Positions 42,710 through 64,000 of a DNA stretch of 64,000 nucleotides are shown in pieces. Within the stretch, counting starts at the first letter, position 1, and each line of letters starts with the position of its first letter. Origin of the DNA: Candidatus Brennerbacteria bacterium (GTDB lineage Bacteria > Patescibacteriota > Minisyncoccia > UBA6257 > GWB1-50-10); assembly GCA_016183535.1 (NCBI GenBank), contig JACPEK010000004.1:8592-72591 (forward strand), given 5' to 3'. The notes beneath the pieces are model-generated. The model saw only the letters and a list, made by a program, of their open reading frames with translations, was not told where the DNA came from and did not search any database. A program made the translations under genes and the position numbers.

Positions 42710-43126
42710 ATGAAGAAAACGGCGAGAGGGCGAATAGCGGCGGTAATAGCAGTGGTAATTTTCATAACGCTCACGGCGCCCGCATACGCCGGAGAGGGCA
42801 TCTGGAAGGACGCGAAGTGTGCGGCGGATTCGGCGGGTCCCACGAACCCCTGCGATTTCTGCGACGCTTTGGTTGTCGCCCGAAACATCGTGGGGACACT
42901 TCTCGAATTCGCGTTCCTCGCCGCGGCCGTCATGATCGCGGTAGGCGCGTTCATGATGATGTTCGCGGCCGGGTCAGAGGATCGCTTCAAATTGGGAAAA
43001 CAAACCATCCAGAACGCCGTGATCGGCCTTGCGGTCGCGCTCGGCTCGTGGCTCATCGTGAACACCATCCTCCAGTTCCTCTCCGGCAGGCCGGACCTGC
43101 CATGGAACAAGATCGCGTGCGGATAA
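42710..43126 (+). CDS. TrbC/VirB2-like type IV secretion system pilin family protein, paralog 1
   Basis: A signal peptide and two hydrophobic helices around the motif GAFMMMFAAGSEDRFKLGKQTIQNAVIGLAVAL. Confidence 0.7.
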   Translation: MKKTARGRIAAVIAVVIFITLTAPAYAGEGIWKDAKCAADSAGPTNPCDFCDALVVARNIVGTLLEFAFLAAAVMIAVGAFMMMFAAGSEDRFKLGKQTIQNAVIGLAVALGSWLIVNTILQFLSGRPDLPWNKIACG

Positions 43127-43173
43127 TCTGATACAATAGAATCCAAGCAAGTATGAAACATAAGGGGGCGATT

Positions 43174-43521
43174 ATGGGACTCATAATGATGATGGTGATT
43201 TTCGCCATCGCGCCATTTGCACTTGCGGGCGGACACGAGCCCCAAGGCAACGTCATTGAGCTCCCGAATCCTCTTGGCGCCACGAGCACACCCGCCGAGC
43301 TTCTCGATAAAATCCTCACCTTCCTTATCCAAATCGGCGGCGTCATCGCGAGCATTATGGTCATCGTGGGCGCGTTTCAGATGCTCTTCGCCGCGGGCGA
43401 CCCCGAGAAATTCATCATCGGCCGCCGCACCGTAATCTACGTCGCCGTCGGCTATGGTATACTGCTCATGGCGAAAGGAGTAACGCTCATCATTAAAGAT
43501 TTCCTTACCATAAAACCGTGA
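43174..43521 (+). CDS. TrbC/VirB2-like T4SS pilin family protein, paralog 2
   Basis: Motif VGAFQMLFAAGDPEKFIIGRRTVIYVAVGYGILL. An AAGGGGG RBS lies 6 nt upstream of the ATG at 43174. Confidence 0.75.
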   Translation: MGLIMMMVIFAIAPFALAGGHEPQGNVIELPNPLGATSTPAELLDKILTFLIQIGGVIASIMVIVGAFQMLFAAGDPEKFIIGRRTVIYVAVGYGILLMAKGVTLIIKDFLTIKP

Positions 43522-43553: not shown

Positions 43554-43904
43554 ATGAACAACAAGAAAGTAGTGTCAGCGATAGCGATAGGAGTCGCGCT
43601 CGCAACGCCGCTCATCGGCTTTGCGCAACCGACGACCGTAAGCGGTGTTACGAATCTCATAAATAAGGCGCTCGGAATCATTCAGTATGTGTTCTTTATC
43701 GTCGCGGCGATTTTCATTATCGTGGCGGCCTTCAAATATCTGACCGCGCAGGGCGACCCCGAAAAGGTAGGGGCGGCGCGCCAGATGGTGATCTACGCGG
43801 TGATCGGCATCGCGGTGGCGCTTCTCGCGCTCGTTATAGACAACATTGCGGCAGATTTTCTCGGAACCAGCGCTCCAGCTGAAATAACTCCGGGTAATTT
43901 TTAA
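43554..43904 (+). CDS. TrbC/VirB2-like T4SS pilin family protein, paralog 3
   Basis: Motif AAFKYLTAQGDPEKVGAARQMVIYAVIGIAVAL. Confidence 0.75.
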   Translation: MNNKKVVSAIAIGVALATPLIGFAQPTTVSGVTNLINKALGIIQYVFFIVAAIFIIVAAFKYLTAQGDPEKVGAARQMVIYAVIGIAVALLALVIDNIAADFLGTSAPAEITPGNF

Positions 43905-45968: not shown

Positions 45969-45997
45969 CAAACACCCCCGAAAAATCGGGGGTATTT

Positions 45998-47857: not shown

Positions 47858-47882
47858 CACAATTATTTATCAAAACTTAACC

Positions 47883-49931
47883 ATGCAACTCAACAGAAAA
47901 AAATTCGCGACGAAATTAGACGGGGATGAAGTAACACTCGAGATATCCGAACTCGCGGGCCAGGCGAACGGCGCGGTGATCGGGCATCACGGCGATACCG
48001 TGGTCTTGGCCACCGTCGTCATGGGAAACAAAGAAACCTCGACCGATTATTTCCCTCTCACGGTGGACTACGAGGAGCGCTTCTACGCGGCGGGAAAAAT
48101 TCTCGGGAGCCGCTTCGTGCGGCGCGAAGGAAAGGCGTCCGACGAAGCCACGCTCTCCGCGCGCCTCATTGACCGCACCATCCGCCCTCTTTTCGATCCG
48201 CGGCTCCGGCGCGAAGTGCAAGTCACGATCACCGTTCTCTCGTACGACGAGCTTCACGATCCCGACGCGGTGGCGCTCCTCGCCGCTTCCGCGGCGCTCG
48301 CGATCTCCGACATTCCGTGGAATGGCCCGGTGGCGGGCGTGCCGTTCGTCGAAAAAAATGATGATGGTTCGCTTCGCTCTCACGCGTTTTTCGCCGGCCC
48401 TAAAGGGAAGGTGAATATGATTGAGCTTGAAGGTGTCGAGATCGCGGAAGAAAAAGCGACGGAGCTTTTCATGGAAGGACAGCGCGTGATCGATGAATTG
48501 GTCTCCTTTCAGGAACGGATCGCGAAAGAAATCGGGAAAACCAAAATAGAAATATCCTTCCGCGCGCGCGACGAGGAAACCGTCCGTGTGGCGCGCGAAT
48601 TTTTGAAAAGAGAATTGCCGGCGGCGGTAAAGGAAAAAAGACTCGAGGAGGTGCGCGCGGCGCTTGTTACTGCGCTCGCAACGAACGAAGCAACCGCGGC
48701 GCATGCCGGAAGCGCGGATGAGATCTTCGAGGAGGCGGTGGACGCTTACGTGCGAGAGGAAGTGATGGCGAGAAACGAACGCCCCGACAGCAGGAAGCTC
48801 GACGAGGTGCGCGATCTCTACGCCGAAGTGGGACTTCTGCGGCGCACGCACGGCTCCGCGCTCTTCATGCGCGGTAACACCCAAGTGCTCGCCGTCACAA
48901 CCCTCGCGAGTCCCGGCGCCGAACAGCTCATCGAAACCATGGAGACGCAAGGGAAACAGCGTTTCATGCTCCACTACAATTTTCCGGGATTCTCGACCGG
49001 CGAGGCAAAACGCGCGCGCGGCCCGGGACGCCGCGAGATCGGGCACGGCAACCTTGCCGCGAAAGCGGTGCGGAACCTCATTCCCTCAAAATCGGAATTT
49101 CCCTACACCATCCGCGTGGTCGCGGAAACACTCTCCTCGAACGGATCGTCTTCCATGGCGACCGCCTGCGCGACGATCCTCGCACTCATGGATGCGGGCG
49201 TACCCGTTAAAAAACACGTGGCGGGAATCGCGATGGGACTCATGACCGACGACAAGGGCAACTTCAAGATTCTCACCGACATCCAGGGGCCGGAGGATCA
49301 CTATGGCGACATGGATCTGAAAGTCGCGGGCACCGCGGATGGAGTGACGGCGATTCAAATGGACACGAAAATCGAGGGGATCACGGACACTATCTTCAAA
49401 GCGGCGCTCGCCGATGCGAAACAGGCGCGGCTTCATATTTTGAAAACAGTCCGCGCGGCGCTCGCCGCTCCACGTCCAGAACTTTCTTCTTACGCGCCGC
49501 GCATCCTCACGCTCACCATACCAGAAGAAAAAATAGGACTCGTCATCGGCCCCGGCGGGAAAACCATCAACGGGATGGTGGAAGCCGCGGGAGGCGACGT
49601 TGAAATCACCGTCGAAGACGACGGGAGCGTATTCATCGCGAGCGTGAACGCCGCGCACGCAAAAACAGCGTACGAAATGGTGGCGAATCTCACGAAAGAA
49701 TATAAATTGGGGGATGTGGTGGAGGGGCCCATTATTAAAATCCTCGAGTTCGGCGCGATTGTGGACTTAGGCGGCGGGCGCGATGGCATGATCCACGTTT
49801 CGGAACTTCGTGATGGATTTGTGCCGCGCGTCGAAGATGTCGTACGCGTCGGCGACCACGTACGGGCGGCAGTGGTGCGCGTGGAAGACGGACGTATCGC
49901 GCTTTCCTTGAAACGACTGAAGGAACAATAA
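47883..49931 (+). CDS. pnp: Polyribonucleotide nucleotidyltransferase (PNPase)
   Basis: Two RNase PH domains plus KH and S1 domains. 682 aa. Confidence 0.97.
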   Translation: MQLNRKKFATKLDGDEVTLEISELAGQANGAVIGHHGDTVVLATVVMGNKETSTDYFPLTVDYEERFYAAGKILGSRFVRREGKASDEATLSARLIDRTIRPLFDPRLRREVQVTITVLSYDELHDPDAVALLAASAALAISDIPWNGPVAGVPFVEKNDDGSLRSHAFFAGPKGKVNMIELEGVEIAEEKATELFMEGQRVIDELVSFQERIAKEIGKTKIEISFRARDEETVRVAREFLKRELPAAVKEKRLEEVRAALVTALATNEATAAHAGSADEIFEEAVDAYVREEVMARNERPDSRKLDEVRDLYAEVGLLRRTHGSALFMRGNTQVLAVTTLASPGAEQLIETMETQGKQRFMLHYNFPGFSTGEAKRARGPGRREIGHGNLAAKAVRNLIPSKSEFPYTIRVVAETLSSNGSSSMATACATILALMDAGVPVKKHVAGIAMGLMTDDKGNFKILTDIQGPEDHYGDMDLKVAGTADGVTAIQMDTKIEGITDTIFKAALADAKQARLHILKTVRAALAAPRPELSSYAPRILTLTIPEEKIGLVIGPGGKTINGMVEAAGGDVEITVEDDGSVFIASVNAAHAKTAYEMVANLTKEYKLGDVVEGPIIKILEFGAIVDLGGGRDGMIHVSELRDGFVPRVEDVVRVGDHVRAAVVRVEDGRIALSLKRLKEQ

Positions 49932-51186: not shown

Positions 51187-51519
51187 ATGAAACAAGACGA
51201 AAAGAAACAGCTCGAGAAAAAACTGCAGGAAGAAGAAAAAAAACTCGAAGGCGAACTCGAAGATTTCAAAAAAAATCTTGATTTCGGAAGTGAAACCGAT
51301 CACCTTGAAGAGGAAGCGGACGAAACCGAGGAATTCGGGGCGTGGATAGGAGTGAAACGAATCCTCGGACGTGAACTCGCGCGGGTGCGTCGCGCCCTTG
51401 GAAAAATCCATCTCGGCGCCTACGGCGTCTGCGAATCCTGCGGAAAAGAAATCGAGCTTGAGCTTCTTGAAGCGAATCCCGCATCCACGCTCTGTGTGAG
51501 CTGTAAGGCAAAAAAGTAA
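51187..51519 (+). CDS. DksA/TraR-family C4-type zinc-finger protein
   Basis: A coiled-coil N-terminus and C-terminal CESCGKEI…CVSC. A ttgact…tatttt promoter-like sequence lies upstream. Confidence 0.8.
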   Translation: MKQDEKKQLEKKLQEEEKKLEGELEDFKKNLDFGSETDHLEEEADETEEFGAWIGVKRILGRELARVRRALGKIHLGAYGVCESCGKEIELELLEANPASTLCVSCKAKK

Positions 51520-51556: not shown

Positions 51557-53098
51557 ATGAATCCCGTTCCCAAGCTTTTTTCGGTGGGACTCGAGGGCAT
51601 TGAAGCCGAACTTGTCGAGGTGGAGGCCGACTTAAATGTCGGCCTCCATTCGTTTACAATCGTCGGTCTCGCCGACAAAGCAATCGCCGAATCGAAAGAG
51701 CGGGTGAATTCTTCCCTCAAACACATCGGGGTGAGGCCGCCGACGCGCGAAAATCGGCGCATCACCGTAAACCTCGCCCCGGCCGACGTAAAAAAAATCG
51801 GATCGCATTTTGATCTCCCTATCGCACTCGCTTATCTCCTCGCCTCCGGACAACTCAAACCATTTGAGAGCGCGGAAAAACTTTTCGCGGGCGAACTCTC
51901 ACTCGACGGCACACTCCGCCCCGTCTCGGGAATTTTGAACGCCGCGCTCTTCGCCCGCACGCGCGGATTCATGGAATTTTTTGTCCCCCGCGAAAACGCC
52001 GATGAGGCCGCGGCGATCCCGCAGGTGCGCGTGTTTCCCGTCTCACATCTACGTGAACTCGTCGCTCACCTTGAAGGAACCACACTCATTGCCGCACATC
52101 CGCCTGTGCCGCTTTCCGCGCAACCGACGCCGAGCCGCGCCGCGTTCTCCGACATTCGCGGACAGGAAGCCGCAAAACGCGCCCTCCTCGTCGCGGCGGC
52201 CGGCGGACATAACGTCCTGCTCGCGGGGCCGCCGGGAACGGGAAAAACAATGCTCGCCGAGGCGTTCGCCGGCATCCTCCCGCTCCCCGCGGGGGAGGAG
52301 ATGCTCGAGATTACACGCGTGTGGAGCGCCGCGGGGCTCACCGCGAAGAATCCGATCGTGAACTTCCGACCGTTCCGCGCACCCCACCACAGCGCCTCCG
52401 CGGTCGCCATCCTCGGTGGCGGAACCAATCCGCACCCCGGAGAGGTTTCGCTCGCCCACCGTGGCGTGATGTTCCTCGATGAGTTCCCCGAATTCCATCG
52501 CGACGTACTTGAGGGACTCCGCCAACCTTTGGAGAGCGGAGAGGTGCTCGTCGCGCGCGCAAAAAAAACCATCGCGTTTCCGGCCAGGTTCACGCTCATC
52601 GCCGCGATGAACCCGTGCCCCTGCGGATACTTCGAAGATTCCGCCCACGAGTGCCGTTGCACCGCCGCAGAGGTGTTCCGCTACCAACGAAAGGTGTCGG
52701 GTCCGCTCCTCGACCGGATCGACATTCAACTCCATGTGCCTCGCATTAAAACCGATGAGCTTCTCGCGGATCGTCCCGCCGCCGGCGCGGCGGGGGACGA
52801 GAAAATTCGCGCGCGGGTGCGCGAGGCGCGCGCGCGGCAAGAAGAGCGTTTTAAAAATCACGCGCGCACCGTCTTCGCAAACGGGGAAATGACTTCGCGG
52901 GAGGTTGAGGAGCTCATCACGCTCGATGCCGAGGCGGACGCACTCTTGAAACGGGCGCTTGATCGCGCGCTTCTCTCGCCCCGCGGGTACTATCGCACCC
53001 TCAAGGTCGCGCGCACTGTCGCAGACCTCGACCGCGCCGAGCGCGTGTCGGCACCTCACCTCGCGGAAGCGCTTCAGTATCGGGTCAAGCAAGAGTAG
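51557..53098 (+). CDS. comM: Mg-chelatase-like AAA+ protein ComM/YifB
   Basis: N-terminal Lon-like domain, Walker A GPPGTGKT and a C-terminal ChlI-like domain. 513 aa. Confidence 0.9.
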   Translation: MNPVPKLFSVGLEGIEAELVEVEADLNVGLHSFTIVGLADKAIAESKERVNSSLKHIGVRPPTRENRRITVNLAPADVKKIGSHFDLPIALAYLLASGQLKPFESAEKLFAGELSLDGTLRPVSGILNAALFARTRGFMEFFVPRENADEAAAIPQVRVFPVSHLRELVAHLEGTTLIAAHPPVPLSAQPTPSRAAFSDIRGQEAAKRALLVAAAGGHNVLLAGPPGTGKTMLAEAFAGILPLPAGEEMLEITRVWSAAGLTAKNPIVNFRPFRAPHHSASAVAILGGGTNPHPGEVSLAHRGVMFLDEFPEFHRDVLEGLRQPLESGEVLVARAKKTIAFPARFTLIAAMNPCPCGYFEDSAHECRCTAAEVFRYQRKVSGPLLDRIDIQLHVPRIKTDELLADRPAAGAAGDEKIRARVREARARQEERFKNHARTVFANGEMTSREVEELITLDAEADALLKRALDRALLSPRGYYRTLKVARTVADLDRAERVSAPHLAEALQYRVKQE

Positions 53099-53170: not shown

Positions 53171-53971
53171 ATGGGACGAAGATTGGGCCAACACTTTTTG
53201 AACGACAAGAAAATCCTCGCGGCAATCGCTCGTGAGGCGTTGTCGGCCAACAACTGCATTATTGAGATCGGCCCGGGGCACGGGGAACTGACGGAACAGC
53301 TTTTAACTTTGAGCGGCGAGCTTCAAGTGGTAGCGATAGAAAAGGACGGCGAACTCATTCCCCACCTTTCGTCCCTTCAAACCAAGTATAAAAACCTTGA
53401 AATTATCCAAGGAGATGTGCGAGAAATTCTCCCGGAATTAACTAAAAGCTCAAAGTTAAAAACTAAAAACTGTACCATCGTCGGCAACATTCCCTACTAC
53501 CTCACCGGCTATCTTCTTCGCCTCATCGGAAAACTTGCGATAAGCGACCCGAAACTGATAACAAGAGTGGTGGTGGTGATTCAGAAAGAGGTTGCCGAGC
53601 GGGTGTGCGCCGTTGCGCCACACGCCAATCTGCTCTCATCCATAATCCGCGGCTGGGCGGAACCTATGATTGGATTCGCGATTCCGCGAAGCGCGTTTTC
53701 GCCGCCGCCGAAAGTTGATTCGGCGCTCCTCACGCTCGTCTCGAATGGGCGCGTACCGGAGCGTACGCGTTCTCGCTACTTCGAGATGGTAAGAATAGTT
53801 TTCACGCACCCGCGAAAAACGCTTGCGAACAATCTCGCGCACGGATTCGCGCTCACACGCGCGCGCGCGGAGCGGATTGTCGCTGACCTTGGTCTCCCGC
53901 GGGAAGCGCGCGGCGCGCTTCTCACCCCCGCCCACCTCATCACACTCGCCGAAACGTTGTATGATAAGTAA
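53171..53971 (+). CDS. rsmA: 16S rRNA (adenine1518/1519-N6)-dimethyltransferase RsmA/KsgA
   Basis: GQHFL…EIGPGxGxLT…NIPY motifs. It contains an in-frame A-rich insertion (…TKSSKLKTKN…). Confidence 0.93.
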   Translation: MGRRLGQHFLNDKKILAAIAREALSANNCIIEIGPGHGELTEQLLTLSGELQVVAIEKDGELIPHLSSLQTKYKNLEIIQGDVREILPELTKSSKLKTKNCTIVGNIPYYLTGYLLRLIGKLAISDPKLITRVVVVIQKEVAERVCAVAPHANLLSSIIRGWAEPMIGFAIPRSAFSPPPKVDSALLTLVSNGRVPERTRSRYFEMVRIVFTHPRKTLANNLAHGFALTRARAERIVADLGLPREARGALLTPAHLITLAETLYDK

Positions 53972-53974
53972 CAC

Positions 53975-54601
53975 ATGAAACATCGTGGAAAAATACTCGC
54001 GGCGCTCGTGATAACGCTCGTCGCGTTTCCGCTCCCCACCGATGCGATTTCGCTTTTCTCTCCGTTCGGCGGGAAAGTGAAGAGTTGGAACCTCTCCTGC
54101 ATCAAGGAAATCACGCTTCCGGTGCTCGTCGCCACCGCGTTTTCTACGCTCGTCACGGTTGAAAAAATAGAGGTCGGGGAACCCTCCGAAACGACCGCCG
54201 GCCTCCTCCGCATAGATCTCGTGCCGATCCCAAATCCTAATGTGGTGAAAAGGAATTTTGGCTACTTTGTGCCGGGCACCAACGTGCTCGGAAATTCCAT
54301 CAATCTCTGTGACGTTTGTAAAAAAATAAAAGACGCCGGGGAAACGCTGGGAGGCCCCGCGAAAGAAATAGGTGAAAAATTTTGTAAATCGATCCCTGCG
54401 GTGGGAGAATTTCTCGACGTAATCTGCTCGGTTAGTTCTAAAGAATGCCCCGTTACTAATCTCGTCTATCAAATCGGGTCCGGTTCCCCCATCGGCGGCA
54501 TCGTGGAAGGCACCGCGTCAAATATTATTTCTTACGTGTGCACCTCGGTTGCCGATGCGGTGCCGCTTGTGGGAAGTTTCTTAAAAGAACTTTGCCCTTA
54601 G
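53975..54601 (+). CDS. Cysteine-rich secreted protein, unknown function (first gene of the T4SS-like cluster)
   Basis: 208 aa with a signal peptide (MKHRGKILAALVITLVAFPLPTDA) and about 11 Cys in the mature part (CDVCKK, KFCKS, VICSVSSKECP…). Confidence 0.5.
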   Translation: MKHRGKILAALVITLVAFPLPTDAISLFSPFGGKVKSWNLSCIKEITLPVLVATAFSTLVTVEKIEVGEPSETTAGLLRIDLVPIPNPNVVKRNFGYFVPGTNVLGNSINLCDVCKKIKDAGETLGGPAKEIGEKFCKSIPAVGEFLDVICSVSSKECPVTNLVYQIGSGSPIGGIVEGTASNIISYVCTSVADAVPLVGSFLKELCP

Positions 54602-54651
54602 TTACAAAAAAGAACGGAAATTCGGGCATAAATAGTATATAATGAGAGAAA

Positions 54652-55413
54652 ATGCGGATGTATTTTCATTTTCTTCGTCTGCCACACAAGCGCCGCGCGC
54701 TCCTCGCGGCCGCCATCCTCGCCGCTTCGATCGGTGTGAGCGCCTACTTCGTGGCGTCTTCCGCGCCGAATACTCCTCCGGCGTTTTCGGGGTCGCTAAC
54801 GCCAATAGTTGCGCACGCCGACCCCGCGCCTGAAGCGTCCAACCTCACCCAAGAGTTTACCCGGCAAGCCGTCGAGAAGCTCATCACCGACAACGAACCG
54901 CTCAAGGCGGAAGGCGCGGCACTTGAAGCGTATGCCGTCATCCCCGACGCGCCCGACGTCGCCGTCATCGTTTCAGAACTCATCGACCGCGAGCTTACGA
55001 CCGAACAACTCAAAACATCCGACCTCCTGACGCATGAATCGAACTCGAAAGAGATTCAGCTCGCCTACCTCTTTTTTATAAATGAAATTCTTGAAACGCA
55101 GGGGGGTGAAATGCCGGCGCTCGGCGCGGGTTCTCTCGCCACATACTTCACCGACACCGCGGCGAAGCTCCATGAAACCGCGGAGATTTTGAAAGCGGTG
55201 AAGACTCCTTCTTCTTGGCTCCCTCTCCACCGCGATCTCGTCGCATTCTTCCTCCGGCAGGGAAATATTTATCGCTCCCTCGGCGCGGCGAACACGGATC
55301 CGCTCCGGTTTATGATCGCGGCAACGCGCCTTCTTCCCGCCGAAACCGAGCGCGAGTTTCAAAAACTGCAGGCGACGATCGATCAAAAAATAAAGGATGA
55401 AAAGCTCATCTAG
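54652..55413 (+). CDS. Membrane-anchored or secreted helical protein, unknown function
   Basis: 253 aa with an N-terminal hydrophobic anchor. It overlaps the next gene by 17 nt. Confidence 0.5.
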   Translation: MRMYFHFLRLPHKRRALLAAAILAASIGVSAYFVASSAPNTPPAFSGSLTPIVAHADPAPEASNLTQEFTRQAVEKLITDNEPLKAEGAALEAYAVIPDAPDVAVIVSELIDRELTTEQLKTSDLLTHESNSKEIQLAYLFFINEILETQGGEMPALGAGSLATYFTDTAAKLHETAEILKAVKTPSSWLPLHRDLVAFFLRQGNIYRSLGAANTDPLRFMIAATRLLPAETEREFQKLQATIDQKIKDEKLI

Positions 55414-57103
55414 ACCCACTCTTGCCGCCGCGCTTATTTTTTCAATCGCTTCAAGCGGGATCGTATGGCCCGCGCCCGTGGCACGCGCCGCGTGCACCTC
55501 ATGGGAGCTCGTTTGGACCGCGACGCCTCCCGAACTTGAGATTCTAAATCCGGGTGATCGCATAGAACCTCCCTACTACGGCGGCCTCAATCCGGTAACT
55601 GCGGAGTCGTCTCCCGCCGCGCCAAACCTCCCCACGGGGAGCGAGGGAGAGTGGCGATGCATCAAGCAAGCCGCCGAACCGCCGGACTCTTCTCGTACGG
55701 AGGAAGAAAAAGCGCGGCCGGTCGGCATGGAACTCTGCGACCGCGCGGCGAAGCTCGCCGCGCGCCTCGGCGGACTCACCGCATTCAATCTCGACATAAA
55801 GGCGCAGATACAGACCGAGGCTTTGAACCGCATCAAAGATTATATGGGTGAGCAATTTAAAGACGCGACGGGCGTCAATCTTAATCTCAATGATCTCAAA
55901 AAGACGGCGTTCGACGCGGCGGGGAAATTTGCCAGCGATTTTGGAAAGGATTTGTGGGACAACAGCGGACTCAAGAAAGAGATAGATGATAAGATAAAGG
56001 CGATCGAGAAGGCGGGGATTGAAAAACTCAAGGAGCTTGGCGGAAAAGCCGCAGAGAAAGCTCTCGACACCGCAAAAGGCATCTTGAGCACCGAAGTGCC
56101 GATAACCGACCCCGAAGGGAATCGCCAGCGGGAAGAACTTAAAGACAAGCAGGATCGGTTGATTACCGAGCAAAAAATTGCGGAACTAAACGCCGACACG
56201 CGCCAGAAATGCGCCGAACTCCTCAAGACCACGAACGAGTCTATTAAGCGCGCACTCCTTTACCAACTCTCGACGCAGGTCGTCGAGTGGATCCAAACCG
56301 GCAAAACCCCGCAGTTTGTGAAACAGCCGGGTGTGTTTCTTGAGGAGAGCGGACGCCTCGCGCTCGACCGCTTCATCTCGCGCACCGCGCCGCGTCTTTG
56401 CCAGTCGTTCCGCACAAAAATCCAGCTCGAGATCCCGAGCGTCGCGAAGCGGGACAATCCCTTCTACGAAGAAATTACCTGTTCGCTCGACCGGGTGGTG
56501 AAAAACGCCGACAATTTCTACCAGGACTTCCGCAAAGGAGGATGGATCGCGTACTCGGAATCGCTCAAACCGAAGAACAATTACTTCGGCGCGTCGCTTA
56601 TGGCGCAGGATCAGGCGCTCGAGGAAGCGGCGCGCGCCAAGGAAGAAGCGGCGCGCGATATCGCCGCCGGGCGTGGCTACCGAAGTCAGCGGCAGTGCGT
56701 CGAGTGGGCAAAATACGAGCTCAAGCGGACGCCCGACCCTTTCATGTTGAGCGACACGCTTTCCGTCGGGAGCACTTTCTATGCGCGTACCGAGACGAGG
56801 ACGGGTACCACCAAGGAGGGAACGCCGCCCGGGGCGGAAGGATATACCAACACGAAAGGCGACCAAAAGTTCTGGGCCGCCGACGGTTTGTCGTTCTGGC
56901 AGTGCGAGCGCGACGAGATCACAAACCCCGGCACGGTCGCGGCAGGGCTTTCCGAAAAAGTCGCGCAATCGGACTTCGAGAGTCTCGCAAACGCCGACGA
57001 CGCATCGGTACTCCTCCAGACGATTGAGGACGCCATCGTGAACAAGCTCGCGAAATCCGGCGTGAAAGGCCTCAAGTCGCTCCTCCCCAAGGTATTCGAA
57101 TGA
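55397..57103 (+). CDS. Large secreted protein with coiled-coil region (candidate T4SS-associated extracellular component)
   Basis: 568 aa with a signal peptide (…ASSGIVWPAPVARAAC) and a Lys/Glu-rich helical middle. It overlaps the VirB6-like gene start. Confidence 0.5.
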   Translation: MKSSSRPTLAAALIFSIASSGIVWPAPVARAACTSWELVWTATPPELEILNPGDRIEPPYYGGLNPVTAESSPAAPNLPTGSEGEWRCIKQAAEPPDSSRTEEEKARPVGMELCDRAAKLAARLGGLTAFNLDIKAQIQTEALNRIKDYMGEQFKDATGVNLNLNDLKKTAFDAAGKFASDFGKDLWDNSGLKKEIDDKIKAIEKAGIEKLKELGGKAAEKALDTAKGILSTEVPITDPEGNRQREELKDKQDRLITEQKIAELNADTRQKCAELLKTTNESIKRALLYQLSTQVVEWIQTGKTPQFVKQPGVFLEESGRLALDRFISRTAPRLCQSFRTKIQLEIPSVAKRDNPFYEEITCSLDRVVKNADNFYQDFRKGGWIAYSESLKPKNNYFGASLMAQDQALEEAARAKEEAARDIAAGRGYRSQRQCVEWAKYELKRTPDPFMLSDTLSVGSTFYARTETRTGTTKEGTPPGAEGYTNTKGDQKFWAADGLSFWQCERDEITNPGTVAAGLSEKVAQSDFESLANADDASVLLQTIEDAIVNKLAKSGVKGLKSLLPKVFE

Positions 57104-58896
57104 TAAAGCGCATATTTTCAAACGAAAAATTCCGCGCGATCATGGGCGCCGCCGCCGCGCTCGCGATCCTCTTCTTCGTCATCCCCGAACCCGCGGGCGC
57201 CATCTTCGGCATCGATCTAAGCCCCGCCGGCCTCATCACATTCGCGTTCCGCGCGGTTGCGGCAATCCTTTCCTTCCTCATTGGCATCGCGTACATGATC
57301 GCGAGCTACTTTGTGAACTTCATGCTCCAGATGAACTACGACGTTCTTTCGACCAACAATGGCGTGGTGGACGTCGGATGGCGCATCGTCCGCGACGTGG
57401 CAAACCTCGGATTCGTTCTCGTTATTATTGTCATCGCAATCGCCACTATGCTCCGCATCGAGAGCTACGGCGCGAAAAAACTCCTCGTCCGGCTCATTAT
57501 GGCCGCCGTCATCGTGAACTTCTCGCTCGCGATCGCGGGCGTCTTTATCGACTTTTCCCATGTCCTTACCCGCTTCTTTCTCGAGGGAGGACTTGGCACT
57601 TCGAATGCATTCTCCCTCGCGGACAATCTCGGCGCCGCGTTCAGCCCCCAGCGCTTCACTATCGACTCCGGCGATCCTACGCCGCCCGACCCCTCTGAGC
57701 AGGCCGGCGCGTTCACGGGTTTCGCGACCGCAGTTTTGGTCGGCGTGTCGGGATCTATATTTTCCATCATCTTCATGTTGATCGCGACCTTGGTCGTGGC
57801 CGCCCTCGCTCTCATGCTCCTTATCCGCTATGTCGCGCTTTCCTTTCTTCTTATCTTCTCGCCGCTCGCGTGGCTCTTCTGGATCGTCCCCGCGCTCGAG
57901 AGCCAGTTTCATAAATGGTGGAGTAAATTTTTCCAATGGGTGTTCTTCGCGCCAGCGGTGTCATTCTTTATTTATCTCGCGATCACGAGCGTGAAGGCGC
58001 TCGGTTCAAAACCTCTCTCCGTCATCCCCGGCCTTTCGGGCGCGCTCCAGACGGTGGCGAGTCAGGGAGCGCAGATGGCGGTCCTCGCAGGCATCATGAT
58101 CGGCGGACTCATCGTCGCGCAGAGCATGGGTATCGCGGGTGCGGCGGGCGCGCTCAAACTCGCGAACAGCGCAAAGGCGGGCGCGCTCAAGTGGGCCGGC
58201 AAGAAAGCGGGAGAGGGCGGCACGCTCGCGCTCCGTAGCGAGAGAGGACGCAAGCTTACTTCCCTGATGCAGAAAACTCCCGGATTCCGGACCGCCGGCA
58301 CTTTCCTCGCGAGACAACGCCTCGCATTCGAAAAGAAAGCCGCCGACGAAGCAAAAAAGAAGCTTGGCATCACAAAAGATCTCAAAGAAAAAGCGCTTAT
58401 GTACGGCTCCGCCACCACCTCGAACGCCGAGCGGGTTCAGATCATGGATGACGTTTCGAAGGAACGCAACGCCCGAGTAAAGAAACAACAGTCGGAGCAA
58501 GCGAAGGTAGACGAGAAAGAAAACGAGGTCCGTGATCTCGAGAAACAGCGCGAGGAGGCGCGGTCAAAGGGAGACTTAGAAACCGTCGGGAAGCTCACGT
58601 TGAATATCAACGCCAAGATCGAGGAAAAAAAGAAGATCGAAGGGAGTGAATCTTACACGAAAGCGCGGGAAGCGGTGCGGGAGATTGAGGAGGTGATCGC
58701 GACGCTCCCGCAAGAAGCTCGCGAGGAACTCGCGAAAGCTGGTTACAAGGTAAGCAACACAAAACTCGGGGGGCTCTACGGAAGGGGAGATGCCGTCACG
58801 GCGACCGAGGGAGGATGGGAGAAAGTAAAAGCCGCGGTCAAAGCTGAAGAGGAAACCGGCGCGGCTCCCGAAAAGAAAACAGAGAAAAAGAAATAA
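57100..58896 (+). CDS. VirB6/TrbL-like polytopic membrane protein with charged coiled-coil C-terminal tail
   Basis: 598 aa with at least 6 TM helices in the first 330 aa, followed by a Lys/Glu-rich helical tail. The architecture is typical of Gram-positive-type VirB6 analogues. Confidence 0.55.
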   Translation: MIKRIFSNEKFRAIMGAAAALAILFFVIPEPAGAIFGIDLSPAGLITFAFRAVAAILSFLIGIAYMIASYFVNFMLQMNYDVLSTNNGVVDVGWRIVRDVANLGFVLVIIVIAIATMLRIESYGAKKLLVRLIMAAVIVNFSLAIAGVFIDFSHVLTRFFLEGGLGTSNAFSLADNLGAAFSPQRFTIDSGDPTPPDPSEQAGAFTGFATAVLVGVSGSIFSIIFMLIATLVVAALALMLLIRYVALSFLLIFSPLAWLFWIVPALESQFHKWWSKFFQWVFFAPAVSFFIYLAITSVKALGSKPLSVIPGLSGALQTVASQGAQMAVLAGIMIGGLIVAQSMGIAGAAGALKLANSAKAGALKWAGKKAGEGGTLALRSERGRKLTSLMQKTPGFRTAGTFLARQRLAFEKKAADEAKKKLGITKDLKEKALMYGSATTSNAERVQIMDDVSKERNARVKKQQSEQAKVDEKENEVRDLEKQREEARSKGDLETVGKLTLNINAKIEEKKKIEGSESYTKAREAVREIEEVIATLPQEAREELAKAGYKVSNTKLGGLYGRGDAVTATEGGWEKVKAAVKAEEETGAAPEKKTEKKK

Positions 58897-58908
58897 CCAA
58901 CACCCGCC

Positions 58909-60366
58909 ATGGCATACGACACGCTCGCCGATGATCTCCTCTTGCTCTTCCCCACATGGGAAGAGGGGATATGGGAAGCGCTCCAGAAAAAACAGTACCG
59001 CGCGGCCGCGGAACGCTTCGCGATCCTCGTCCGTTCCATGAACCCCGACGAGCGACGGAGTATCGCGTGGGGCACCACGATCCGCGGCGTGCCCGCGGCG
59101 CGGGGGGCGGTAACCGAATCGGAATGGGAACGCGAGGTCCGACCATTCCTCATCAGAGAATTCCTCGAAATCGCCACGGGGCGGATCGTAGCCGACGTCC
59201 TGAACGGTTTTGATCCGCAAGATCGAATTTTGATCTTTAAAACGTTCATAACCGCCATCCCCGGCGGAAGTCCGGAAGAAAAACAACAGTGGCTCGCGCG
59301 CCAAAAATCCACCTCGGCGTCCTATTTCCTCGCGACACCGGCGCAAATCTTCGATCCGTCGGCGCCCGGAACAGATCGCGAAATTTCTCCCGACCTCGCC
59401 GTGAAAAAATTCCTCTCGCTCACAAACACGCTCCAGCGCATCATTTTTACTTACGACACGGCGGAAACCATCCATCGCGCCGCAACGGAAAATCTCCTCG
59501 ATGCCGCGAAAACCCGCGCCGTGGCGCGCGTAGCGGGTCGCGTGCTCGTCGGGTTCGAGGCTCCGCACCACATCGCTAAAACGATCGGAAACGAGGCCAT
59601 CCTCGACGAAAAAACCTCGGAAACGCTCGCGCGGGAATTCCGTTCGCGGATTTTCGCGCCTATTTTCTCCGATCTCGAAGAGGCGTATGAACCGCCAGAG
59701 GATTTTAACGAAACGGCGAAAAAAATTTTTGAGGGGTCGACGGTTGAAGCGAACGTTCCGTCGTTCGCTGAATTTCACCGGAACCCGCCGTCGTCTCCCT
59801 TGTTCCAAATTCCCATCGCGCGCGGCGAAAACACATTCCCCGCGAAAGACACGAAGCAAGCCGCACCCGCGCCTTTCGTCCTCCACGATGAGCGCCCTTT
59901 CGCGGACGCGGCAAAAAAAGAATCCATGAAAGGTTTTTCTTTGCCGTTCGGTCTTTTTAAACCGAAATCCGCTCCCTTCGGAGCGGTGCCTAAGGCGACC
60001 GTGGAAGCGCCCGCTTCCGTCTCCGCTTTCACAAAAACCCCGGAGAATAAAGAAGAAAAAAAGGTGGTGCACTACAGCGAATACCGCACCGATTCCTTGT
60101 CTGAAACCGAGGGCGAGGTTATCAATCTTGAGACCTTCGGACGGGTACGAATGAACACGGATGGAACCGCAAATACCGCAAATACTCCAGCGGTGACGCC
60201 TCCGTCTCCGCCACCAATTACAATCAGCACCGATGAGCACGACGGGTCGGGTATGACTCCTCCATCGAATATAACGATCAAAAAATCGGAGGTGCCGCTT
60301 CCCAATCCGCCGCCTTCACCAGGAAACGCGCCTGCCCTAGAAGGAAATATTGTTGACCTTCGGTAG
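58909..60366 (+). CDS. Hypothetical protein with Pro/Thr-rich C-terminus
   Basis: 485 aa with no TM helix. It is embedded in the cluster between the VirB6-like and VirB3-like genes and overlaps the next gene. Confidence 0.45.
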   Translation: MAYDTLADDLLLLFPTWEEGIWEALQKKQYRAAAERFAILVRSMNPDERRSIAWGTTIRGVPAARGAVTESEWEREVRPFLIREFLEIATGRIVADVLNGFDPQDRILIFKTFITAIPGGSPEEKQQWLARQKSTSASYFLATPAQIFDPSAPGTDREISPDLAVKKFLSLTNTLQRIIFTYDTAETIHRAATENLLDAAKTRAVARVAGRVLVGFEAPHHIAKTIGNEAILDEKTSETLAREFRSRIFAPIFSDLEEAYEPPEDFNETAKKIFEGSTVEANVPSFAEFHRNPPSSPLFQIPIARGENTFPAKDTKQAAPAPFVLHDERPFADAAKKESMKGFSLPFGLFKPKSAPFGAVPKATVEAPASVSAFTKTPENKEEKKVVHYSEYRTDSLSETEGEVINLETFGRVRMNTDGTANTANTPAVTPPSPPPITISTDEHDGSGMTPPSNITIKKSEVPLPNPPPSPGNAPALEGNIVDLR

Positions 60367-60868
60367 TATGGCGACCTTCCAGATTCCACAATTCATTGAG
60401 CAACAACCGAAGGTGGTCGGGTTTCTCACGCTCCCGCAGTTCCTCTATCTCGCCACCGCGGGGGGGATAAGCTTCGCCGCATTTTACGTGTTCACGTTCC
60501 TACTCTGGCTTTTTGTGAGTGTGGTGGTCGTCGCGGCCGGCATCGCGCTCGCCTTCATAAAAGTGAACGGTCAGCCGCTCCCCGCGGTGCTTCGCGCCGC
60601 GCTCTCCTATTATTGGAAACCGCGCACATACGTATGGTCCCGCGCGCTTCAGGAGGAAACGCTCGATCTCTCGCAGATTGAGAAAATAGAAGCGCTCCGG
60701 AGACGGATGGGAATCGAAGAAAAATTAAAAAATCTCGCTCTTCAGGTAACGACAGGGAAGATTTTTTCGCGGCGCGGAAACGCTACGAACCCGCGCGCGC
60801 GCTACCAAACCGTCACCTACCTCACGGGAGAAAAAAAAGTCGCGCGGCGCGTGGATTACGGAGCGTAA
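60350..60868 (+). CDS. VirB3-like / PrgI-TcpE-like two-TM small membrane protein
   Basis: 172 aa with two adjacent TM helices near the N-terminus. It sits immediately upstream of the VirB4-like ATPase, as in Tn916 orf17 and Tcp systems. Confidence 0.5.
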   Translation: MLTFGSMATFQIPQFIEQQPKVVGFLTLPQFLYLATAGGISFAAFYVFTFLLWLFVSVVVVAAGIALAFIKVNGQPLPAVLRAALSYYWKPRTYVWSRALQEETLDLSQIEKIEALRRRMGIEEKLKNLALQVTTGKIFSRRGNATNPRARYQTVTYLTGEKKVARRVDYGA

Positions 60869-60886
60869 TCAGGGTAAACTCTACTT

Positions 60887-61528
60887 ATGCCAAAAGAAGC
60901 GACCGCACCGACGCAACAACTTGTCGCCGTCAAGGAAATTCGCGACGGAGTCGTGTACCTCAAGCGGGGCGGGGTGCGCCGCGTGCTTATGGTGAGCGGC
61001 ATCAATTTCGAGCTGAAATCCGAGGAAGAGCAAAACCTCATTCTTGGAAGCTTCCGGAATTTTCTCAATACGCTCGATTTTTCCGTCCAGTTCTTCATCC
61101 ATTCACGGAAGGTGAATGTGGCTCCTTATCTCGCCTCGCTCCGCGCCCGCATGGAGGAAGAACCAAACGAGCTTCTCAAGATTCAGATCGGCGAATACGC
61201 CGAATTCATTCGTGCCTTTGTGGAAGAAAATGCCATTATCGCCAAAACATTCTTCGTCATTGTGCCGTATGAACCGGCGATTTCCGAAAAAACACGGGGA
61301 GGCATCATGTCTCTCTTTAAAAAAGCAATTCCTGTGGAAACCTTGCGCGGAGAGAGTGTCCAAGAGATGCTCTCCCAACTCGAGCGACGCGCGAATCAAG
61401 TAATCGACGGCCTCTCCCAAACAGGACTCCGCGTAACGCCGCTCGAGAACGATGCGCTCGTGGAACTTTTCTATAATCTCTACAATCCGGAATTCACCGA
61501 AAAGAAAAAAGGCGCGGAACAGCGCTAA
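60887..61528 (+). CDS. VirB4-like conjugal-transfer ATPase, N-terminal fragment or subunit
   Basis: 213 aa. …IRDGVVYLKRGGVRRVLMVSGINFELKSEEEQ…LDFSVQFFIHSRKV… resembles the N-terminal domain of Gram-positive VirB4 homologues (Tn916 Orf16/TcpF-like). Confidence 0.6.
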   Translation: MPKEATAPTQQLVAVKEIRDGVVYLKRGGVRRVLMVSGINFELKSEEEQNLILGSFRNFLNTLDFSVQFFIHSRKVNVAPYLASLRARMEEEPNELLKIQIGEYAEFIRAFVEENAIIAKTFFVIVPYEPAISEKTRGGIMSLFKKAIPVETLRGESVQEMLSQLERRANQVIDGLSQTGLRVTPLENDALVELFYNLYNPEFTEKKKGAEQR

Positions 61529-61554
61529 AGAAAGCTTCCGGCAATTTTTCTCCC

Positions 61555-63306
61555 ATGGAACAAGAAATTAAAAAATCCCATGAAGTGTCTCCCGAGGACA
61601 TTGGTAACATCATTGCGCCCGCCGGCGTTGAGGTGTCCTCGCACCATCTGAAACTCGGCGATTACTACGCCAAAACGCTTTTTCTCTTCGCCTATCCGCG
61701 CTACCTTCCGAGCGGATGGTTTTCTTCTTTGGTCAACCTCCCGGAGATGCTCGATGTTTCCATTTTTGTCCATCCGACCGACACCTCGCTCGCGCTTAAA
61801 AAGCTTCGAAAAAAAGTGGCGCAGGTGCAGGCGGAAATGATGGAGCGGGAAGAAAAAGGACTTGTGCGCGATCCTGTTCTCGAAACCGCGTATCAAGACG
61901 TGGAAAGTCTCCGCGACACGCTTCAGCAGGCCCAGGAAAAACTCTTCAAAGTGGGCGCGTATCTCACTATTTACGGGAAATCTCTCGAAGAACTCGCGAA
62001 ACTTGAGGATAAAGTGCAATCACTCCTCGAGGCGCGACTGGTGAACATAAAATCGGCGCTCTTCCGCCAGGACGAAGCGTTTCTCTCGGTACTTCCTGCG
62101 GGAAACGATTTACTCGCCGTTATCGCTCCCATGAATTCCGGCCCCGCGTCGTCTTTTTTTCCTTTCGTCTCACCCGATCTCACCTCCGACCGCGGTATCC
62201 TCTACGGCGTAAATCTCCACAATCAGTCGCTCGTGATTTTCGATCGATTTTCGCTCGAGAACGCGAACGAGGTGGTCTTCGCAAAATCGGGCGCCGGAAA
62301 GTCCTACGCGACAAAGCTCGAGGTTCTCCGGTCTATGATGCTCAACACCGACGTCATCGTGATTGATCCCGAAAACGAGTACCAAAACCTCGCGAACGCG
62401 GTGGGGGGGAGTTATTTCAAAATTTCGCTCACGTCTCCAAACCATGTGAATCCCTTCGATATTCCCCTCATTCCGGAGGGTGAAGAGCCGGCGGACGTGT
62501 TCAAATCGCACGTATTAAACCTCACGGGACTCGTGAAACTCATGCTCGGGTCCATAACCGCGGAGGAAGATGCGCTTCTCGACCGCGCGATCACGGAAAC
62601 TTACGCCTCGCGCGATATCACCGCGGAAAATTTCGGAACCACGCAGACGTTGAATCCTCCACTCCTCGAAGACCTCCAGACGATCCTCTCTTCGACCGAA
62701 GGAGGTCGCGGCATCGCCACGCGCCTCGAGAAATTCGTGCACGGTTCGTACGCCGGCTTCACGAACGCTCCCACGAACGTAGACGTGAAGAACCGCCTTA
62801 TTATCTTCTCGATCCGTGATCTCGAGGAAGAACTCCGCCCCATCGCGATGTACATCGTGCTGAACTTCGTGTGGAACCTCGTGCGCTCAAAACTCAAGCG
62901 CCGTCTCCTCGTGATCGATGAGGCGTGGTGGATGATGAAGTACAAAGATTCTGCGTCGTTCCTTTTTGGCCTTGTAAAGCGCGCGCGAAAATATTACCTC
63001 GGCGTTACCACTATCACGCAGGATGTCGAGGATTTCCTTCACTCCGAATACGGGCGGCCCATTGTGACGAACTCCTCGATCCAGCTTCTCATGAAACAGT
63101 CCCCTGCCTCGATCGGAGCGGTTGCCTCGGCGTTCGACCTCACGGAGGGCGAAAAGCTACTTCTCCTTGAGGCGGGGGTGGGGGAGGGCCTCTTCTTCGC
63201 GGGACTGAAACACGCCGCGATAAAAGTCATCGCCTCCTACACCGAGGATCAAATTATCACCACCAACCCCGAACAAATGCTCGAGATCAAAGGACTTAAA
63301 GTATAA
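61555..63306 (+). CDS. VirB4-like conjugal-transfer ATPase, C-terminal fragment or subunit (Walker A/B)
   Basis: 583 aa. …IIAPAGVEVSSHHLKLGDYYAKTLFLFAYPRYL… is a VirB4 signature segment. It has Walker A FAKSGAGKSY and Walker B LLVIDEAWWMM. It is in a different frame from the N-terminal ORF, with a 27-nt gap. Confidence 0.8.
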   Translation: MEQEIKKSHEVSPEDIGNIIAPAGVEVSSHHLKLGDYYAKTLFLFAYPRYLPSGWFSSLVNLPEMLDVSIFVHPTDTSLALKKLRKKVAQVQAEMMEREEKGLVRDPVLETAYQDVESLRDTLQQAQEKLFKVGAYLTIYGKSLEELAKLEDKVQSLLEARLVNIKSALFRQDEAFLSVLPAGNDLLAVIAPMNSGPASSFFPFVSPDLTSDRGILYGVNLHNQSLVIFDRFSLENANEVVFAKSGAGKSYATKLEVLRSMMLNTDVIVIDPENEYQNLANAVGGSYFKISLTSPNHVNPFDIPLIPEGEEPADVFKSHVLNLTGLVKLMLGSITAEEDALLDRAITETYASRDITAENFGTTQTLNPPLLEDLQTILSSTEGGRGIATRLEKFVHGSYAGFTNAPTNVDVKNRLIIFSIRDLEEELRPIAMYIVLNFVWNLVRSKLKRRLLVIDEAWWMMKYKDSASFLFGLVKRARKYYLGVTTITQDVEDFLHSEYGRPIVTNSSIQLLMKQSPASIGAVASAFDLTEGEKLLLLEAGVGEGLFFAGLKHAAIKVIASYTEDQIITTNPEQMLEIKGLKV

Positions 63307-63310
63307 CAAC

Positions 63311-63685
63311 ATGCCCATGGAGGAACCAAAAAACAAATTCACGGAGAGTGAGATGATCGTCGGCGGCTTCGCGTTCCTTGGCGTGGACGCAGTGTGCCTC
63401 GCGCTCGATTTGACGGGTGTGGGAATCGCGCTTACCCCTTTCCTCCAGGGCGCGGCGACGTTCTTTGTTGAGTGGTGGGTAAAATCAAAATCGGGATCGT
63501 GGGGCGCGTTGGACTTGAAAAGGGTGGCAAAATATCTCGCGAACGCAATACCGTTTTTTCCCACCGTACTTTTTATTTTTATTGTCTCCGCGTTCATTCA
63601 TAACCATCCGGAAAAACTCCGCGTGTTCGAAAAAGCGGCGGCGGGGAAGGGCGGCGGGACGGCGAAAGCCGCCGGAGGGGTATAA
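63311..63685 (+). CDS. Small membrane protein (two TM helices, Gly/Ala/Lys-rich tail)
   Basis: 124 aa, directly after the VirB4-like gene. Confidence 0.45.
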   Translation: MPMEEPKNKFTESEMIVGGFAFLGVDAVCLALDLTGVGIALTPFLQGAATFFVEWWVKSKSGSWGALDLKRVAKYLANAIPFFPTVLFIFIVSAFIHNHPEKLRVFEKAAAGKGGGTAKAAGGV

Positions 63686-63699
63686 TGAAACAGTAATAC

Positions 63700-64000
63700 A
63701 TGAAACGCACGATTTTCTTCGTCACAGGAGTCCTCCTCATTATGGGGTTCGCCGAGGGCGCGTGGGCGCAAACCGCCGTGGAACCCCAACTGATCCTCAC
63801 CTGGCAAGCGTATAGTTTTCGCCCTTTTTCATACTCCGGAAAAACGCTTCCTGCGGCCGGTACGCCCATTGCGGTTGCACTTGCTGCCGTGCGAAACGGG
63901 CAGTTCTTGGATCTCACGCGGGCAAAAATTTCGTGGTATCTCGATGGGGAATTTGAGGCGGGGGGGGTAAATCTCGCCGAGTTTCGTTTCTCGGCTCGCG
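63700..64000 (+). CDS. Partial CDS (5' end): secreted protein with signal peptide, continues beyond the window
   Basis: MKRTIFFVTGVLLIMGFAEGAWAQTAVEP… has no stop before the window end and is absent from the ORF track. Confidence 0.45.
   Translation, partial: MKRTIFFVTGVLLIMGFAEGAWAQTAVEPQLILTWQAYSFRPFSYSGKTLPAAGTPIAVALAAVRNGQFLDLTRAKISWYLDGEFEAGGVNLAEFRFSAR

Follow-up and report, generated by a model that had tools for sequence, protein, structure and literature searches.

The cluster of genes considered here, which encodes a type IV secretion system (T4SS), lies at the end of a 64,000-nucleotide stretch of DNA, hereafter the window, from a Candidatus Brennerbacteria bacterium (assembly GCA_016183535.1, contig JACPEK010000004.1, positions 8,592 to 72,591 of the forward strand). 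The cluster is very probably a chromosomally fixed T4SS of the Patescibacteria in its Parcubacteria/Paceibacteria arrangement, derived from conjugation machinery of the MPF_FATA type and repurposed. The evidence comprises a VirB4-family ATPase encoded next to its TrsD partner and to VirB3-like and, more tentatively, VirB6-like membrane proteins, a set of VirB2-like pilins, the absence of a relaxase and of a coupling protein from the region, and a gene order and chromosomal position shared with dozens of other Parcubacteria genomes. The locus is an ordinary example of an already published class (2023-2025) and does not represent a new class of system.

Within the window the open reading frame (ORF) listing shows ten forward-strand genes (g1 to g10) that abut or overlap one another from position 53975 to the window end, with spacings between cluster genes of -17 to +50 nt. 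A preliminary description drawn from this DNA had recognised the same-strand run but had counted eleven genes, a number that is reached only if ksgA is included. Comparison with a Logan contig (L001), which agrees with the window over 12,444 bp without a single mismatch, showed that the window end cuts the cluster through g10. On that contig three further forward-strand genes are seen, of 229 aa (g10 in its completed form), 441 aa (g11) and 397 aa (g12), and the cluster comes to 13 genes in total, with all 13 ORFs intact. Statements on conservation refer to 80 related loci from species-level genomes that were retrieved by their VirB4 match, or to 81 loci when the window is included; these carry the labels Jorgensen-, Brenner-, Wolfe-, Harrison- and Liptonbacteria, Paceibacterota and 'Patescibacteria group'.

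The VirB4 motor and its membrane partners

The best characterised product of the cluster is g8 (61555..63306, 583 aa), a VirB4-family ATPase of the CD1110/MPF_FATA type that matched the NCBIfam model NF045971 conju_CD1110 (VirB4-like conjugal transfer ATPase) at 4.3e-109 and 365.9 bits, above the curated cutoff of 325. Pfam PF19044 was matched at 3.4e-27, together with the TraG P-loop and AAA_10 families, and the Walker A (SGAGKS) and Walker B (LLVIDEAW) motifs are both intact. By profile the CD1110 model passes its cutoff, whereas HerA/DUF87 is only a weak secondary match. The match to the CedB model NF041017 (7.6e-11, 41.3 bits) falls far under the cutoff of 700. Homologues of g8 number more than 8000, the best 120 being 578-595 aa long and at least 75% identical; among them is a protein with 100% identity from a Candidatus Brennerbacteria metagenome-assembled genome, and identities of 64-86% extend to about 80 Parcubacteria genomes. 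The nearest plasmid-borne VirB4 proteins come from Bacillota and Actinomycetota (27-35% identity, several annotated as CD1110 family), in line with the Firmicute-type affinity proposed earlier.

The N-terminal part of VirB4 is missing from g8 and is supplied by g7 (60887..61528, 213 aa), a TrsD-like protein, in which the homologue of the N-terminal domain of VirB4 is encoded as a protein in its own right. It matched NF041427 TrsD (5.4e-8, positions 21-200 of 201), VirB4_plasma (1.1e-10, model positions 103-262) and conju_CD1110 (model positions 2-105), and its precomputed match is PF26593 TraC-like. The two products are collinear with full-length VirB4 models, g7 covering the N-terminal parts and g8 the remainder, and only 26 nt separate the end of trsD from the start of virB4. 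The earlier view of a VirB4-like ATPase in two ORFs was therefore right as a matter of homology, with the first ORF being a known type of protein rather than a piece of a broken gene; the idea of a pseudogene or frameshift was rejected on the conserved lengths of the orthologs. TrsD was detected in 76 of the 81 loci, and in 68 of 72 complete orthologs it is a separate ORF of 207-258 aa. In the other four (L060, L074, L077 and L080) TrsD and VirB4 are fused as a single ORF of 716-795 aa, and the split has therefore been made or undone within the group.

Immediately 5' of TrsD, an arrangement found in 72 of the 81 loci, lies a gene for a PrgI-family (VirB3-like) protein, represented here by g6 (60350..60868, 172 aa). 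It has two adjacent transmembrane segments and matched PF12666 PrgI at 1.3e-7 and 32.5 bits, above the gathering score of 27, which bears out its earlier designation as VirB3-like. The designation of g4 (57100..58896, 598 aa) as a VirB6/TrbL-like polytopic membrane protein is retained as a tentative one, the weakest of the core assignments. A hydrophobicity scan places seven hydrophobic segments in residues 1-345, followed by a charged, K/E-rich C-terminal tail of about 250 aa; the precomputed match is PF19590 TrbL_3, and among 33 orthologs three matched PF04610 TrbL (best 1.1e-6) and one matched TrbL_4. A direct scan of g4 itself against TrbL gave E = 0.97, and a g4 profile run against PDB sequences returned coiled-coil or non-significant matches only.

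Pilins and a predicted pilin-linked peptidase module

The preliminary description did not include three tandem forward-strand genes for VirB2-like pilins, which the window carries some 10 kb upstream of the core genes. These are divergent paralogues with 25-36% pairwise identity. The first (42710..43126, 138 aa, four Cys) scored 25.1 bits against PF18895 T4SS_pilin, just below the gathering score of 26.6, and matched TrbC at 1.1e-4, while the second (43153..43521, 122 aa) and third (43554..43904, 116 aa) reached 39.6 and 42.1 bits against the same model. Between the pilins and the core lie genes for an SPFH protein, tRNA-Leu, a Xer-like recombinase, S15, an NYN-domain protein and polynucleotide phosphorylase (PNPase), among others.

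A fourth pilin domain is found inside the cluster, at the N-terminus of g11 (441 aa, forward strand), which is encoded two genes after virB4 at L001 12832-14157, equivalent to window positions 64386-65711 and thus past the window end. PF18895 was matched by 30 of 32 g11 orthologs. The AlphaFold2 model of g11 has a pLDDT (predicted local distance difference test) of 77 overall and above 90 in the C-terminal domain, and this domain is predicted to have a LAS (MepA/VanX/hedgehog) zinc-peptidase fold. This g11 has the motif HGxGx4D and a C-terminal HxH, as do 15 of its 21 close homologues in the database, but among the orthologs at the related loci only 4 of 32 have them; therefore the pilin domain appears to be the constant part of the protein and the C-terminal module the variable one, and the idea that the LAS module is a universal part of g11 was rejected on the same counts. 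No SLT, CHAP or NlpC hydrolase of the VirB1 type was matched in the cluster, and it is possible, judging from the modelled fold, that the LAS-type module on g11 serves as a functional substitute for such a hydrolase.

Conservation and a site near the probable origin

Wherever the flanks of the related loci reach far enough, the order ksgA, g2, g3, VirB6, g5, PrgI, TrsD, VirB4, g9, g10, g11, g12, then jag and yidC in reverse orientation, then dnaA and dnaN, is repeated (traced by tblastn, with g2 followed by jackhmmer). The cluster thus occupies an identical chromosomal site, from ksgA to jag-yidC-rnpA/dnaA, in dozens of Parcubacteria genomes. Its components are constrained to very different degrees, as seen in the median identities of the related loci to the window proteins: 74% for VirB4, 67% for DnaA, 56% for TrsD, 47% for PrgI, 38% for VirB6, 37% for g11, 32% for g10, 30% for g12, 29% for g3 and 27% for g5. 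In 43 of 44 loci the identity of VirB4 exceeds that of DnaA, a comparison biased by the fact that the loci were picked by their VirB4 match. A constrained motor, fast-evolving surface parts and a fixed site near the origin are what sequence comparison would lead one to expect of a vertically inherited cell component and not of a mobile element, because the same gene order is kept at the same site in dozens of genomes. This synteny supports the earlier surmise that the cluster is probably not a canonical conjugative element.

Downstream of g12 the Logan contig continues with the minus-strand genes jag, yidC and rnpA, after which come dnaA, dnaN and a gene for a class A penicillin-binding protein. 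Eight DnaA-box-like 9-mers were found on this contig, a number reached by none of 100 shuffles, and five of the eight lie in or beside the AT-rich dnaA-dnaN spacer (L001 18399-18729, outside the window), where the cumulative GC skew also has its minimum and turns. Because of this coincidence of DnaA-box-like sequences and skew minimum, the origin of replication (oriC) is likely to be located in the spacer, about 3 kb beyond the last cluster gene, a proximity that the preliminary description had not included. GC skew on the forward strand is negative throughout the window, and transcription of the 13-gene operon therefore seems to run toward the origin and to meet replication head-on. The GC content of the cluster (0.53-0.58) is like that of the rest of the window. 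Scans for promoters and terminators gave counts no different from those of shuffled sequence.

On its upstream side the cluster is bordered by ksgA (53171-53971), which ends 3 nt before g1. This is preceded by a comM/Mg-chelatase-like gene (51557-53098) and a gene for a DksA/TraR zinc-finger protein (51187-51519), both of which had been reported earlier and were confirmed by Pfam.

Accessory proteins

The remaining members of the cluster had been described as partners that could be lineage-specific, and most of them turn out to be families conserved across Parcubacteria. For the products of g1 to g6, ORF and hydrophobicity scans agree with the sketch given earlier: a Cys-rich secreted protein, two secreted or anchored proteins, a polytopic protein with a charged tail, a 485-aa protein and a protein with two transmembrane segments.

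The first gene, g1 (53975..54601), encodes a secreted Cys-rich protein of 208 aa with eight Cys and a signal-like hydrophobic N-terminus; it has no Pfam or NCBIfam match. A 'PFGGK' motif stands at its mature N-terminus, and at least 11 related loci encode small secreted proteins with a PFGG[KR] motif in the same position, between ksgA and g2. The small ORFs that relatives carry between ksgA and g2 were considered as candidate pilins, and no matches were obtained with the pilin-domain hidden Markov model. The product of g2 (54652..55413, 253 aa) is bitopic, with an N-terminal hydrophobic segment followed by about 220 aa, and contains no Cys. Of the 45 related loci in which both flanking markers are present, 40 yielded the family to jackhmmer, whereas tblastn had shown it in only 10-11 loci, and by these sequence searches g2 qualifies as a fast-evolving yet positionally conserved core member. 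Its size and topology fit a VirB8-like (NTF2-fold) bitopic protein; a sequence match to VirB8-like proteins is absent, as is any Pfam or PDB sequence match, with the ortholog set included.

A larger secreted or anchored protein is encoded by g3 (55397..57103, 568 aa), which overlaps the start of g4 by 4 nt and has one N-terminal hydrophobic segment and a coiled-coil-like region. Residues ~275-565 form a Cys-containing domain, with W298, C335, C362, N394, G398, C434 and P511 conserved, and it is this stretch that is conserved across a family of 2306 representatives at E<=1e-3 (about 900 at E<=1e-10). No Pfam or NCBIfam match was found for g3, and profile searches of the PDB with the full length or the domain alone returned coiled-coil noise; the AlphaFold2 model, built on a shallow alignment of 11 homologues, has a pLDDT of 44 and a predicted template modelling score of 0.22 and is unusable for a fold search. 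Its place immediately before the VirB6-like gene prompted the idea that g3 may be a VirB5-like protein. By contrast with these exported products, g5 (58909..60366, 485 aa) is probably cytoplasmic, since it has no hydrophobic segment. It combines a conserved helical core (~165-260) with a disordered Pro-rich tail in which PxILHxE, GFxxxFGFF, RVVHYSExRTP and a C-terminal EGNxxDLR are conserved. It was detected in 46 of the 81 loci, and no Pfam match in any of 33 orthologs and no PDB match were found. The first ~160 residues of g5 are specific to this genome.

Behind virB4 follow g9 (63311..63685, 124 aa), a small membrane protein with no Pfam or NCBIfam match, in which a 27-member alignment shows invariant E14, P81, P84 and N98 and an 'HNHPEK' motif, and g10 (63700..64000, cut by the window end), whose product is secreted, has a signal peptide, is 229 aa long when complete and was found in 71 of the 81 loci. 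Weak Ig-like/PKD-like signals are present in g10 (PKD E = 0.004; BiPBP_C in 4 of 32 orthologs), all under the family cutoffs, and g12 (397 aa), beyond the window, gave a weak beta-propeller signal. PDB profile searches with g10 and g12 returned coiled-coil or non-significant matches only, and Pfam searches on the ortholog sets of g2, g3, g5, g10 and g12 gave no consistent match.

Absent conjugation genes and the surrounding window

By Pfam annotation, neither a relaxase nor a VirD4/TcpA-type coupling protein is encoded in the 64-kb window or the 7.7 kb beyond it, and the earlier statement that no relaxase, VirD4-like ATPase or integrase is adjacent to the cluster was borne out. The sole FtsK-like gene has the alpha and gamma domains of a chromosomal FtsK. 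The rest of the window is given over to housekeeping genes, including those for tRNA synthetases, TsaD, NusA, H+-PPase, a Mur ligase, FolD, SHMT, FtsH, gyrase A, RecA, FtsK and a PNPase-like protein. The only tyrosine recombinase in view is XerC/D-like (45998-46918, minus strand); it lies 7 kb upstream of the cluster, from which it is separated by the PNPase, S15, ComM and KsgA genes. A tRNA-Leu(tag) gene on the forward strand adjoins this recombinase gene within 45586-46918. The lowest GC content of the window (0.494) is found at 44-46 kb, a segment that encodes the SPFH/Band-7 protein. Positions 47324-49931 hold the gene for the NYN-domain (RNase-like) protein and a 682-aa ORF that is PNPase-like by reading of its translation; a 2026 preprint tied PNPase, together with VirB4, to RNA feeding in the Patescibacteria phylum.

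Comparison with known systems

The closest published description is that of Quiñonero-Coronel et al. (2025), who found a monophyletic clade of Patescibacteria VirB4 proteins nested in MPF_FATA (PMC12102498). In their survey TrsD, a marker of the pGO1 subclass, is the commonest VirB4 partner in Patescibacteria and is accompanied by PrgI/VirB3, VirB6 and arrays of VirB2-like pilins, while relaxases are nearly absent, genes for type IV coupling proteins (T4CP) are seldom near virB4, and the T4SS of Paceibacteria adjoins dnaA, dnaN, rnpA and ksgA (PMC12102498). The Brennerbacteria locus shows the same arrangement: an MPF_FATA-type VirB4 with adjacent TrsD, PrgI/VirB3, a tentatively assigned VirB6, VirB2-like pilins, no relaxase, no nearby T4CP, and a site by dnaA/dnaN/rnpA/ksgA. 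That its VirB4 belongs to the Patescibacteria clade is strongly suggested by its identities, which reach 64-86% with the proteins of about 80 Parcubacteria genomes and at most 35% with any plasmid VirB4. Going beyond the main text of that paper are the accessory families g1, g2, g3, g5, g9, g10 and g12, the pilin protein with a variable module, and the occasional TrsD-VirB4 fusions. A 2025 review likewise treats the Patescibacteria T4SS as a recognised branch of the superfamily (PMC12857230), and a 2026 preprint reported pilus-like tubes at a parasite-host interface (bioRxiv 10.64898/2026.06.21.733656).

Experimental evidence comes from Southlakia, in which Wang et al. (2023) showed by transposon sequencing that the T4SS and pilins are essential for epibiotic growth (PMC10633639). 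The T4SS of Southlakia epibionticum ML1 (SEML1_0006-0019) resembles the present cluster in being Gram-positive-like, in carrying pilin genes and in lacking, within the cluster, any gene that could be recognised as coding for a relaxase or coupling protein (PMC10633639). Its low locus-tag numbers suggest an origin-proximal site, as here, and a peptidase and a lysozyme encoded downstream of virB4 are analogous to the LAS-fold module. The two differ in that Southlakia belongs to the class Saccharimonadia and has a six-gene pilin array inside the cluster, as opposed to three pilins 10 kb away; moreover its T4SS was shown to be essential by experiment, whereas the Brennerbacteria cluster is known from its genes alone.

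Among conjugative systems, the trs genes of pGO1/pSK41 and the tra genes of pIP501 run in the order VirB3-like (TrsC), TrsD and VirB4 (TrsE), with a peptidoglycan hydrolase a few genes later. This order of VirB3-like protein, TrsD and VirB4 with a later hydrolase, in MPF_FATA systems of the pGO1 subclass, is like that of the window; in contrast to the cluster these systems are plasmid-borne and have a relaxase, an oriT, a VirD4-type coupling protein, VirB8-like proteins and a VirB1 of SLT/CHAP type, and they lack pilins. The Prg/Pcf system of pCF10 shows the order VirB6-like, PrgI, VirB4 (PrgH-PrgI-PrgJ), and PrgJ is annotated with the NCBIfam CD1110 family. Unlike the cluster, pCF10 encodes a full-length VirB4 of 796 aa (PrgJ) and no TrsD, has PrgK (VirB1), PrgL (VirB8), PcfC (T4CP) and a relaxase, and carries adhesins in place of pilins. 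More generally, a relaxase, a VirD4/TcpA-type ATPase, a VirB1 of SLT, CHAP or NlpC type and carriage on a mobile element characterise the canonical conjugative MPF_FATA systems (pCF10, pIP501, ICEBs1, Tn916, pCW3), and none of these is in view here.

The closest VirB4 in the plasmid collection (35% identity) is encoded on a megaplasmid of Pontibacillus sp. ALD_SL1 (L086, 351801-361354). Its cluster includes a pilin-like protein of the Mbov_0395 family (compare the Mbov_0395/0397 families of Mycoplasma integrative and conjugative elements), a large hypothetical protein, two small proteins, a CD1110-type VirB4 and a peptidoglycan metalloendopeptidase, and, like the window, it has no relaxase within 12 kb. 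It differs in residing on a Bacillota replicon without linkage to the origin and in having its peptidase as a separate protein of 1050 aa (DD-metalloendopeptidase family) with no pilin fusion; the likeness noted here is one of gene content. This cluster suggests that pilin-bearing, relaxase-less T4SSs of monoderms exist outside the Patescibacteria too. The archaeal Ced import system, finally, uses an ATPase of the CedB type, the cutoff for which g8 fails.

Possible function and alternative explanations

How a chromosomally fixed T4SS of this composition might work can be outlined by analogy. TrsD and VirB4, docked on the VirB3- and VirB6-like proteins, would pull pilins from the membrane and polymerise them to give a slender pilus or conduit. 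Peptidoglycan, either the cell's own or that of the host, could be cut by the peptidase module to let the structure through, and g1, g2, g3, g10 and g12 may form or decorate an extracellular part that contacts the host cell needed by these ultrasmall bacteria. The system would then move proteins or other macromolecules between symbiont and host, with direction and substrate left unspecified, rather than mobilise DNA by means of a relaxase. A more elaborate version has g1-g3, g5, g9, g10 and g12 together with g11 constituting an extracellular apparatus specific to Parcubacteria, that is, a pilus with swappable enzymatic heads (here a LAS-type endopeptidase) that breaches the host wall, mainly importing host macromolecules such as RNA, with g5 (EGNxxDLR) acting as a cytoplasmic adaptor that replaces the coupling protein; in this full form the proposal is unlikely.

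Several points weigh against the repurposed host-contact system proposed here. Its function is inferred by analogy, and the experimental evidence was obtained in Saccharibacteria, a different class. The LAS module is present in some g11 orthologs only and so cannot be universal to the mechanism; the assignment of g4 is burdened by its non-significant direct TrbL match; seven of the 13 products (g1, g2, g3, g5, g9, g10 and g12) have no established fold; and no VirB8-like and no VirB1-like (glycosidase) component was recognised in the cluster. The scan for a coupling protein and a relaxase covered 64 kb plus 7.7 kb, and either may be encoded elsewhere in the genome; VirD4 homologues in fact occur in most Patescibacteria genomes, far from virB4 (PMC12102498). 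The neighbouring comM also leaves room for a role related to DNA.

This last point leads to the suggestion that the cluster is a DNA-uptake T4SS of the competence type, comparable to Helicobacter ComB or archaeal Ced, that takes in host or environmental DNA for nucleotides or recombination in conjunction with comM. Uptake systems likewise have no relaxase or T4CP, comM/Mg-chelatase-like and recA genes are both present in the window, and 24 related loci have ComM on the upstream side of ksgA (in most of the others the flank is too short to show it); in the class ABY1, comF, recG and radA adjoin the T4SS (PMC12102498). The weak CedB match might be counted in the same direction, but at 41 bits it stands against a cutoff of 700 while the conjugative CD1110 model passes, and the adjacency of comM may simply reflect a conserved origin-proximal backbone. 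In Southlakia, moreover, deletion of comEC abolished competence and left viability unaffected, whereas the T4SS is essential, and competence there needs type IV pili (summarised in PMC12857230), so that DNA uptake is regarded as a quite improbable function of the cluster. Active but unconventional conjugation, served by a distant relaxase that escaped recognition and by a coupling ATPase whose gene lies in another part of the genome, is less probable again. It would be compatible with the extent of the genome inspected, with the widespread but distant VirD4 homologues noted above and with the possibility of very divergent relaxases (PMC12102498), yet relaxases were found in only 103 of 3,035 genomes (PMC12102498), the VirD4 homologue of Southlakia is non-essential whereas its T4SS is essential, and a chromosomal, origin-proximal and vertically inherited site is unlike that of mobile elements.

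It could also be argued that the cluster is the decayed and non-functional remnant of a Firmicute-type integrative and conjugative element that has lost its relaxase, coupling protein and integrase, given that homology links the VirB4/PrgI/TrsD core to conjugative MPF_FATA systems and that a tyrosine recombinase and a tRNA-Leu gene lie 7-8 kb upstream. This explanation can scarcely be credited. Gene order and site are constant in dozens of species-level genomes, every one of the 13 ORFs is intact, and the short VirB4 and its split from TrsD are conserved and owe nothing to a frameshift. The conservation of VirB4 relative to DnaA, with the selection bias already mentioned, and the agreement in GC content between cluster and window point the same way, and the recombinase is XerC/D-like, with the housekeeping genes for PNPase, S15, ComM and KsgA in between.

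Significance

The Patescibacteria, which account for a considerable fraction of bacterial diversity, spend their lives attached to other microbes, and their T4SS is among the few machines that have been shown, in Saccharibacteria, to be essential for that lifestyle. The Brennerbacteria locus offers a clean and complete 13-gene worked example of the Parcubacteria arrangement, to which it adds a set of position-conserved accessory families, a pilin protein with a variable LAS-type head, and the fission or fusion of TrsD and VirB4. The accessory families and g11 are thus concrete candidates for structural and genetic work.

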